A stretch of 64,000 bases of DNA, from positions 14,496 to 78,495 of the forward strand of contig JAWLHV010000005.1 of assembly GCA_041690175.1 (NCBI GenBank), given 5' to 3'. Below, piece by piece: positions 63,427 through 63,837 of the stretch. Origin of the DNA: Dehalococcoidia bacterium. GTDB lineage: Bacteria > Chloroflexota > Dehalococcoidia > UBA2979. The notes below the pieces were generated by a model, which saw only the letters and a program-made list of their open reading frames with translations, did no database searches and was not told where the DNA came from. How positions within the stretch are numbered: the stretch's first letter is position 1; every line of letters begins with the position of its first letter. A program made the translations under genes and the position numbers.

Positions 63427-63439
63427 GAGGGAGGGTCAG

Positions 63440-63760
63440 GACTCCTGTGGATGGGGATGGCTCAGTCCACAGCGGACCGTCCGGTGCCTATGGGATCAGA
63501 TAGTCGTCATCGTAGTGGTGTGGATCGTGTTCACGCCTCCCGGTGCTTCGCGCCGTTGCTGGCGATACGACCATTCCAGGGCTGGGACAGGCCGCGTTGC
63601 TTCGTTCACGCCTGGGTGACTTACCCACGGTGAGTCTGTGGAGAGCCGGCGAGACAGGTCATTGCAACTCGACAGAAATCGAAAGAGTCGACACATGTCC
63701 ACCGCACAGCCGCCACTTGTCCACAGTGGAGGCCACAGATCGGCGCATCCGATTGCGCAA
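63440..63760. other. candidate oriC: cluster of DnaA-box-like 9-mers plus an AT-richer segment, immediately downstream of dnaA
   Basis: ctGTGGATgg (63446-54), agTCCACAg (63464-72), gTGTGGATcg (63518-27), tcTGTGGAga (63635-44), TTGTCCACAgtgg (63718-30), gGCCACAGAtcgg (63731-43); relatively AT-rich 63661-63700 (cattgcaactcgacagaaatcgaaagagtcgacacatg). Confidence 0.45.
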
Positions 63761-63837
63761 TTGTTCGGATCGCAACCAGCAGGCGTGAGACCTGAAAATG
63801 GGGACAAGTGCCGGGGGCCGAGAGTAGCGAGGCGACC

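Follow-up and report, generated by a model that had tools for sequence, protein, structure and literature searches.

In high-GC Actinobacteria (Mycobacterium, Streptomyces), the origin of replication lies in the dnaA-dnaN spacer and its DnaA boxes follow the consensus TTGTCCACA. Here we analyse the spacer that separates dnaA from obg in a 64-kb stretch of DNA (the window, to which all coordinates and strands refer) with a GC content of about 70%. On comparative evidence, we consider it likely that this spacer is the chromosomal origin (oriC) of the Dehalococcoidia (Chloroflexota) bacterium from which the DNA derives. An origin at this place had been proposed earlier from the letters of the window (the original prediction), and is supported by the box cluster, by conservation, by homology of the unwinding module, and by GC skew and gene orientation. 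The origin appears to be of a known kind and its novelty modest: it differs by having obg for dnaN, no AT-rich tract and cytosine-centred DnaA-trios.

Among the closest described systems is the basal unwinding system (BUS) of Bacillus subtilis oriC (incC, with DnaA-boxes 6 and 7, a GC cluster and the DnaA-trios), for which Richardson 2016 and Pelliciari 2021 and 2023 served as references. Modules are written 3' to 5' in the supplementary table of Pelliciari et al. 2021, from which polarity was fixed; the Bacillus cereus module reads 3'-AATAGGTGT ATAGGTGT TCGG GATAATGAT-5' and that of Shigella AATAGGTGT CCCATCACGC TAGGATTAT. By the rules of that study, a box with at most two mismatches lies 0-16 bp from the trios in the correct orientation (5'-TTATCCACA-spacer-3', with the trios on the opposite strand), a second co-oriented box (at most four mismatches, 0-3 bp away) is optional, and at least three consecutive trios read 3'-NAN-5'. 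The published NAN-based search found no BUS in 15% of origins. Published predictions on DoriC origins put the module of Dehalococcoides mccartyi (ORI10010023, ORI10010158) 1.6-1.9 kb into the genome. In B. subtilis, the central adenine of a trio can be exchanged for cytosine, though not for guanine or thymine, both in strand-separation assays and in vivo; the authors suggested that DnaA homologues might recognise other sequences and predicted natural variants (PMC10721633). Motifs of the form 5'-TnnT-3' opposite the trios recruit DnaD in that organism (PMC10201434).

The spacer under study lies directly downstream of the dnaA stop codon (63838-63840, - strand), between this origin-indicator gene and obg, with exactly the boundaries that had been predicted.

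63427-63837, no strand assigned: dnaA-obg intergenic spacer, 411 bp, predicted oriC, with the box cluster

Counting every 9-mer that agrees with TTATCCACA at 7 or more of its 9 positions gives exactly six in the spacer (two + strand, four - strand), in agreement with the claim of at least six box-like sequences in both orientations. The whole window contains 47 such 9-mers, which by length corresponds to an expectation of 0.30 for a stretch of 411 bp; among 1272 sliding 411-bp windows the spacer ranks first, no other stretch having as many. As the spacer is less GC-rich than coding DNA, shuffling was performed on the spacer itself. Dinucleotide-preserving shuffles (n = 2000) yielded a mean of 0.69 matches (sd 0.80, maximum 5) and none reached six. 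When the high-GC consensus TT[AG]TCCACA was used instead, eight boxes were found in the spacer, a number reached by one shuffle in 2000. The spacer thus carries a cluster of boxes well above background. Its individual boxes, apart from a tandem pair given further below, are the following (conservation refers to six aligned loci, namely the window and its five closest relatives L001, L002, L003, L066 and L067).

63446-63454, - strand: DnaA box CCATCCACA, among the six matches of at least 7/9; CATCCACA invariant in the six loci
63463-63471, + strand: DnaA box CAGTCCACA, facing the trio block from the obg side; TGTGGA core conserved
63621-63629, + strand: DnaA box TTACCCACG, among the six matches; box-like sequence at this position in five of the six loci
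63637-63645, - strand: box-like CTCTCCACA, among the six matches of at least 7/9; not conserved in relatives
63695-63703, + strand: DnaA box ATGTCCACC; GTGGA core invariant in the six loci
63717-63725, + strand: DnaA box TTGTCCACA, perfect for the high-GC consensus (8/9 to TTATCCACA), invariant in the six loci
63729-63737, + strand: weak box GAGGCCACA, co-oriented with the perfect box and 3 bp beyond it; repeat family D1, partly conserved
63799-63807, - strand: DnaA box TTGTCCCCA, close to the stop codon of dnaA and among the six matches of at least 7/9; L001 and L067 have TTATCCACC or TTATCCACT

Comparisons were extended to eleven related loci. Three of these (L001-L003) came from a genome scan, two (L066, L067) were retrieved by scanning with a spacer 23-mer, and six (L068-L073) were collected as DnaA homologues with 69-84% identity; the closest relatives are metagenome-assembled Dehalococcoidia (Chloroflexota) whose Obg is 80-86% identical. 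In the six-way alignment the spacer is poorly conserved overall, with a mean column identity of only 63% and many indels. Nonetheless, the elements TGTGGACAA, GTGGA[CT]A, CGATCCACA, TGTGGA and CATCCACA are invariant and keep their orientation in the six loci. Five to eight boxes hold their position and orientation in the five closest relatives, while the sequence between them has diverged. In each relative's locus, boxes are most densely clustered in the spacer (7-9 boxes in about 400 bp against a background of about 0.8). The original prediction was to be given up if a better cluster turned up upstream of dnaA, beyond the end of the window; when relatives were examined for this, the five closest ones proved to have 0-1 boxes there as opposed to 7-9 in the spacer. 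What they do have upstream of dnaA is a conserved promoter-like block followed by a 5' leader. The block (positions 8000-8120 in L003, with homologous copies in L001, L002, L066 and L067) has the form CACATAAGAGCCTTGATCGGCC...GCGGTGCTA(TT/CA)GTCCG...GTTGCGGCAAGAC and, free of DnaA boxes, reads like a promoter with -35 TTGATC and -10 TATTGT and a conserved leader.

One part of the spacer stands out from this diverged background: a 37-nt block that takes in a box, a short spacer and a run of trinucleotides.

63494-63530, no strand assigned: 37-nt block identical in the six loci save two columns in trio 5; proximal box, spacer and trios
63501-63515, + strand: five DnaA-trio-like trinucleotides, 5'-TAG TCG TCA TCG TAG-3', equal to 3'-GAT GCT ACT GCT GAT-5'
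63516-63518, - strand: 3-nt spacer CCA between proximal box and first trio; cca, ccc, gccc or tca in all 12 loci
63519-63527, - strand: proximal DnaA box CGATCCACA, 7/9 to TTATCCACA, invariant
63528-63536, - strand: position of the distal tandem box, directly next to the proximal one; GCGTGAACA in the window, degenerate with 4 mismatches

In the published 3' to 5' format, the + strand of this module reads 3'-ACAAGTGCG GCTAGGTGT GGT GAT GCT ACT GCT GAT-5'. The proximal box CGATCCACA has no more than the two mismatches allowed, lies 3 nt from the trios and has the correct orientation; abutting GCGTGAACA is in place of the optional second box. Counted from the distal box, the trios are 12 bp away, a distance that falls within the published peak of 10-13 bp. 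When the metagenome collection was scanned with a 23-mer taken from the block, exact matches came only from loci of this type; there were three, including a duplicate of L003, so that the block in its exact form is limited to a narrow clade. The arrangement itself is more widespread. The 12 loci (the window and the eleven related ones) share an in-register module consisting of two boxes, a C-rich spacer of 3-4 nt, and five or more C[T/G]A triplets on the dnaA-sense strand, situated 81-114 nt before the obg start in L068-L072 and the window clade. The distal box position, with two to three mismatches in the relatives, reads GCGTCCACA, GTCTCCACA or CCGTCCACA there. In L068, for instance, the sequence is GCGTCCACA CCGTCCACA gccc followed by four CTA triplets, which is to say four times 3'-GAT-5'.

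Reading the trios across these loci reveals a graded series. L068 and L071 have 3'-GAT GAT GAT GAT GCT-5' and L072 has four GAT followed by GAC; L069 is intermediate (GAT GAT GCT GCT GAA), and L070 and the window clade have GAT GCT ACT GCT, then GCT, GAT or ACT. All 60 trios (five in each of 12 loci) have A or C at the centre. The search pattern constrained trios 1-4 only, and the fifth, left free, has A or C in 12 of 12 cases. The first and third positions stay G/A and T, respectively. Cytosine takes the place of the canonical central adenine in three of the five trios in the window and in four of five in the close relatives. The A-or-C reading was adopted because the strict rule, (NAN) at least three times within 16 bp of a box, gave no conserved candidate: the window has one match, which is not conserved, and the five close relatives have none at all. 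Under the A-or-C rule that PMC10721633 suggests, the window shows five trios in a row. This reading then found support in distant relatives, where L068, L071 and L072 comply with the strict NAN rule at the homologous position. An initial reading of the block as six 5'-NAN-3' triplets on the dnaA-sense strand was rejected, since in the published table trios have the opposite polarity.

The trio block is also the least stable 30-mer of the spacer (-37.8 kcal/mol), and it sits beside correctly oriented tandem boxes. Altogether, the segment from 63501 to 63536 is the better candidate for the unwinding site, and the module as a whole is homologous to the textbook basal unwinding systems of the more distant relatives (two boxes, a GC spacer and four 3'-GAT-5').

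A different layout is seen in L073. Tandem boxes and trios are found there after nadD (14313-14713), next to the remnant of a DUF772 transposase (13833-14312), whereas the dnaA-obg spacer (11462-11653) measures only 192 bp and has the GTTGATA...GTGGATATCTC box pair in a second copy. The origin seems to have been split or duplicated here by an insertion sequence-linked rearrangement. Since boxes and trios sit after nadD in this locus, the module is not tied to the obg promoter.

A peculiarity of the module is the cytosine at the centre of most of its trios. A change from A to C at this position would keep the amino group that is read by Asn187 of DnaA. Domain III of the DnaA encoded here lies outside the window; P0001, a 448-aa DnaA from the protein collection with the same C-terminus, is 94% identical to the L003 protein. 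We aligned the DnaA proteins of the relatives with B. subtilis DnaA as present in cryo-EM structure 8BTG. The equivalents of E183, N187, I190, I193, R202, K222, E223, E228 and the arginine finger (R264) are conserved in the DnaA of the clade, while N196 is R throughout. Judged on the proteins of close relatives, the residues for single-stranded DNA binding and base capture are therefore in place, and the pocket shows no difference between lineages with A-centred and with C-centred trios. L072 DnaA (10001-11353) alone has G at the Asn187 position, despite four canonical GAT trios. On balance, we lean towards the view that the lineage uses cytosine-centred trios (3'-GCT-5', 3'-ACT-5') as a natural single-strand recognition motif of its origin. 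With a similarly slight preference, we read the series from four GAT through GAT GAT GCT GCT to GAT GCT ACT GCT GCT as the record of an A-to-C drift at the very position where B. subtilis tolerates C.

Should this be correct, the demand that the middle base bear an amino group would be a real evolutionary constraint, and the trio series would lend independent evolutionary support to the base-capture model. The published NAN-based search would miss origins of this type, which suggests that the rule be relaxed to N[A/C]N for GC-rich genomes when origins are sought. Motifs 5'-TnnT-3' opposite the trios number 0-2 in the C-centred lineage, compared to 3-4 in the relatives with GAT trios. The drift would thus remove the motifs that B. 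subtilis DnaD needs while the genome encodes a DnaD-like protein, raising the question of how the second helicase is recruited. The genes concerned are in a replication cluster at 9136-12558 (- strand) that includes the dnaB helicase gene (11116-12558), a gene for a protein with a DnaD/DnaB_2 domain (10430-11110), and one for a 453-aa protein with two AAA+ modules that match the IstB/DnaC and DnaA ATPase domains (9136-10497, - strand). This is a Firmicute-like helicase-loading set, located about 50 kb from the origin.

The following sequence of events can be proposed. DnaA would bind some eight double-stranded boxes of the type TT[A/G]TCCACA spread over about 360 bp, as suggested by the sequence and by the conserved domain IV of the protein. 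The opening module would be at the obg-proximal end, with the two abutting co-oriented boxes (63536-63519, - strand) anchoring DnaA. From there, a filament of ATP-DnaA would extend onto the + strand, across the 3-nt spacer and the five trinucleotides (63515-63501), capture the bases of this strand and melt the duplex in the geometry of the B. subtilis BUS; this step is modelled on the homologous BUS modules of the relatives. Replication would then proceed in both directions, placing the 63 kb of the window on the leftward replichore.

Skew and gene orientation are in line with such a scheme. The + strand shows negative GC skew along almost all of the window, and the cumulative skew is still falling at the right end, as expected if the origin lies at or beyond that end. 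Most predicted genes (45 of 58, making up 81% of coding bases) are transcribed away from the spacer. Pooled over the 12 loci, the skew is -0.026 upstream of the module and +0.040 downstream; six loci have flanks of 6.8 kb or more to both sides, and in every one of them it rises across the module, most clearly in L072 (from -0.107 to +0.071).

Several observations speak against the spacer and its module being read in this way. The window does not contain three or more consecutive 3'-NAN-5' trios, its trio centres being A, C, C, C and A, and the relaxed N[A/C]N is easily satisfied in GC-rich DNA; hence, the trio reading rests on position, homology and invariance, not on window statistics (the relaxed module pattern occurs only twice in the 64 kb, both strands considered, once at this spacer). 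The distal box is degenerate in the window, at four mismatches, and the trios of the window clade are not followed by any clearly AT-rich region. Four distant relatives (L068, L069, L071, L072) carry 2-5 boxes upstream of dnaA, which may be autoregulation sites or a second part of the origin. Finally, the local skew change is weak in some loci, with L069 negative on both sides; as about 10 kb were read per side, in relatives only, the skew is consistent with an origin and not decisive.

Other explanations of the spacer were weighed against these data. A chance cluster of matches in a lower-GC intergenic region is hardly credible: five of the six matches are only 7/9, and the lower GC content raises the chance rate, but no composition-matched shuffle among 2000 reached the observed count and the boxes retain position and orientation in loci where the sequence between them has diverged, which refutes this explanation. 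DnaA is a transcription factor as well as an initiator, and clusters of its boxes occur at sites other than origins. The spacer could in this sense be a DnaA-binding regulatory region (controlling obg-nadD transcription or read-through from dnaA, or titrating or reactivating DnaA in the manner of datA or DARS) with the origin located elsewhere. The boxes directly upstream of obg, the known regulatory role of DnaA and the weak local skew change in L003 and L069 would fit; however, tandem boxes, a short spacer and a trinucleotide array make up an unwinding architecture rather than an operator, the module is separated from obg in L073, the spacer yielded no sigma-70-like promoter, an origin at this place is in keeping with skew and gene orientation, and nothing else occupies the canonical position beside dnaA in close relatives. 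We regard this possibility as quite improbable. Still less probable is that the invariant 37-nt block belongs to a transcript, whether as a structured obg 5' leader, as a small RNA or as a tiny leader peptide (MTTI). Its perfect conservation 80-115 nt upstream of the obg start, and an ATG-ACG-ACN-ATC-TGA mini-ORF readable on the obg strand, could be taken that way. Yet L068, L069, L071 and L072 lack the mini-ORF and have CTACTACTACTA in its place, in L073 the block does not precede obg, and the 3-nt periodicity with A/C toggling fits the trio rule. Moreover, no Rfam family matches the spacer even at E <= 1, and a scan of the spacer for promoter and terminator consensus sequences returned none. 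A bipartite origin, like incAB and incC in B. subtilis or the origin of Helicobacter pylori, with a second box cluster upstream of dnaA and outside the window, is given a small chance. The region upstream of dnaA has five boxes in L069 (four of them within one mismatch), five in L072, and a perfect TTATCCACA plus one more box in L068. These could equally be sites of dnaA autoregulation; the five closest relatives, one of which is 96% identical in the DnaA C-terminus, have 0-1 boxes there and the promoter-like block and leader instead.

The last alternative accepts the spacer as the origin and concerns the place of opening. The original prediction had pointed to a locally AT-richer 40-bp stretch.

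63659-63698, no strand assigned: AT-richest 40 bp, 57.5% AT against 39% in the spacer and about 30% in the window

The stretch is real, but an unwinding role for it fared less well. It contains the second least stable 30-mer (-38.7 kcal/mol against -37.8 for the invariant block) and abuts the boxes at 63695 and 63717, so that opening here, with the invariant block being just another box with flanking constraint, has to be considered. However, the stretch is conserved in three of the six loci only (window, L002, L003), being of different sequence in L001, L066 and L067. The boxes next to it read TTGTCCACA on the + strand and, by the geometry of the BUS and of E. coli R1, face away from it, in the direction of rising coordinates. 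The invariant block has a slightly lower stability and is homologous to canonical trios. A third candidate, the 73-bp segment flanked by the convergent boxes at 63717 and 63799, is only partly conserved. Nearest-neighbour stability profiles by themselves do not single out one unwinding element: the three regions compete and their ranking differs between loci. We conclude that 63659-63698 is probably not the unwinding site and think it unlikely that the origin opens there, the segment 63501-63536 remaining the preferred candidate.

The genes around the spacer are as follows.

63838-64000, - strand: 3' end of dnaA, last 53 codons and stop; the gene continues beyond the window
62158-63426, - strand: obg (GTPase), first gene downstream of the origin; Pfam GTP1_OBG, E = 7e-57
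61538-62170, - strand: nadD-like nucleotidyltransferase gene, Pfam CTP_transf_like; after obg in all relatives
55668-57920, + strand: gyrB

The last 53 amino acids of DnaA match domain IV; the fragment is 96% identical to the full-length DnaA of L003 (Pfam Bac_DnaA and Bac_DnaA_C), and its C-terminus is identical to that of P0001. The neighbours are those that had been described, obg-nadD with gyrB 6 kb off and dnaN not adjacent. This is not an origin of the dnaA-dnaN type, obg and then nadD following it in the window and in the 11 related loci. All 11 have one gene order in common: coaBC and coaX pointing away from dnaA on one side; dnaA, spacer, obg and nadD in a single direction; and a methyltransferase gene and, further on, gyrB pointing back towards them. 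The neighbourhood had been called non-canonical, and this holds for obg in place of dnaN, whereas the position just downstream of dnaA is canonical; given its presence in 11 related loci, the arrangement is a stable trait of the lineage. No dnaA was found near obg in the other Obg-bearing loci of the genome scan (L004-L064; cyanobacteria, proteobacteria and others), and the adjacency is thus specific to this group of Dehalococcoidia. In L070, a 228-kb contig (BTUI01000005.1) begins 100 bp before dnaA and so does not include the region upstream of it; this locus has a gene for an N6/N4 DNA methyltransferase (5614-6843) between nadD and gyrB.

Other features of the boxes deserve mention. Two pairs face each other. 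The segments 63710-63725 and 63799-63814, 73 bp apart, form a 16-nt inverted repeat with 88% complementarity, and the boxes 63463-63471 and 63519-63527, 47 bp apart, bracket the trio block. GATC sites occur at 9.7 per kb in the window spacer against 5.75 per kb window-wide (1.7-fold), and at 16-20 per kb in the spacers of L001-L003; no enrichment is seen in the distant relatives L068-L072. Two or three GATC sites fall inside the invariant block. A second apparent cluster of boxes (12976-13440) was discarded: it consists of TTGTCC half-site palindromes (GGACAA-n-TTGTCC) that have no CCACA core, some of them partly inside rplI, and not of DnaA boxes. Palindromes of this type (GGGACTTGTCC, CCGGACAACTTGTCCGC, GGGACAA) at 13330-13480, upstream of the rplI (L9)-dnaB operon, raise the number of 9-mers resembling TTGTCCACA. 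They suggest the operator of some regulator more than a set of DnaA boxes.

An origin beside dnaA is in itself routine annotation. It provides a coordinate anchor for uncultured high-GC Dehalococcoidia genomes, with uses in replichore assignment, coverage-based estimates of growth rate and orientation of contigs.

How the locus relates to known origins can be stated as follows. With respect to the E. coli oriC, the IHF site, the 13-mers and the gidA/mioC context are absent here and GATC is only mildly enriched, but at the left end of oriC (R1 box, 13-mer DUE) the strand bound in single-stranded form likewise reads 5'-unwinding region-TGTGGATAA-3' (Shigella row of the BUS table). D. mccartyi belongs to the same class, Dehalococcoidia. 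Its module presumably lies just past dnaA, if the genome records start at that gene. The D. mccartyi genomes are low in GC, with a special box in Ori-Finder (TTATCGAAA) and A-rich predicted trios, while the boxes here are of the standard TT[AG]TCCACA type. Compared with Actinobacteria, the phylum is different, the boxes are far fewer than in Streptomyces and obg replaces dnaN downstream; the high GC content, the position downstream of dnaA, the G at the third box position (with a perfect TTGTCCACA at 63717), the several degenerate boxes and the only modest AT-rich element are alike. In comparison with B. subtilis, the differences are C instead of A at the centre of window trios 2-4 (2-5 in close relatives), the missing AT-rich tract after the trios, obg rather than dnaN downstream, the absence of an incAB-like cluster upstream of dnaA in close relatives, and the small number (0-2) of 5'-TnnT-3' motifs for DnaD recognition opposite the trios of the window clade. 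The resemblance to incC and its BUS nevertheless extends to most parts of the module: a position directly downstream of dnaA, two adjacent co-oriented boxes, a short G/C spacer, at least five trinucleotides on the strand that runs 3' to 5' away from the boxes, a first trio 3'-GAT-5', 12 bp from distal box to trios and conserved residues in the DnaA pocket. As in B. subtilis, moreover, the genome encodes a DnaD-like protein and, next to dnaB, a loader of the DnaI/DnaC type.

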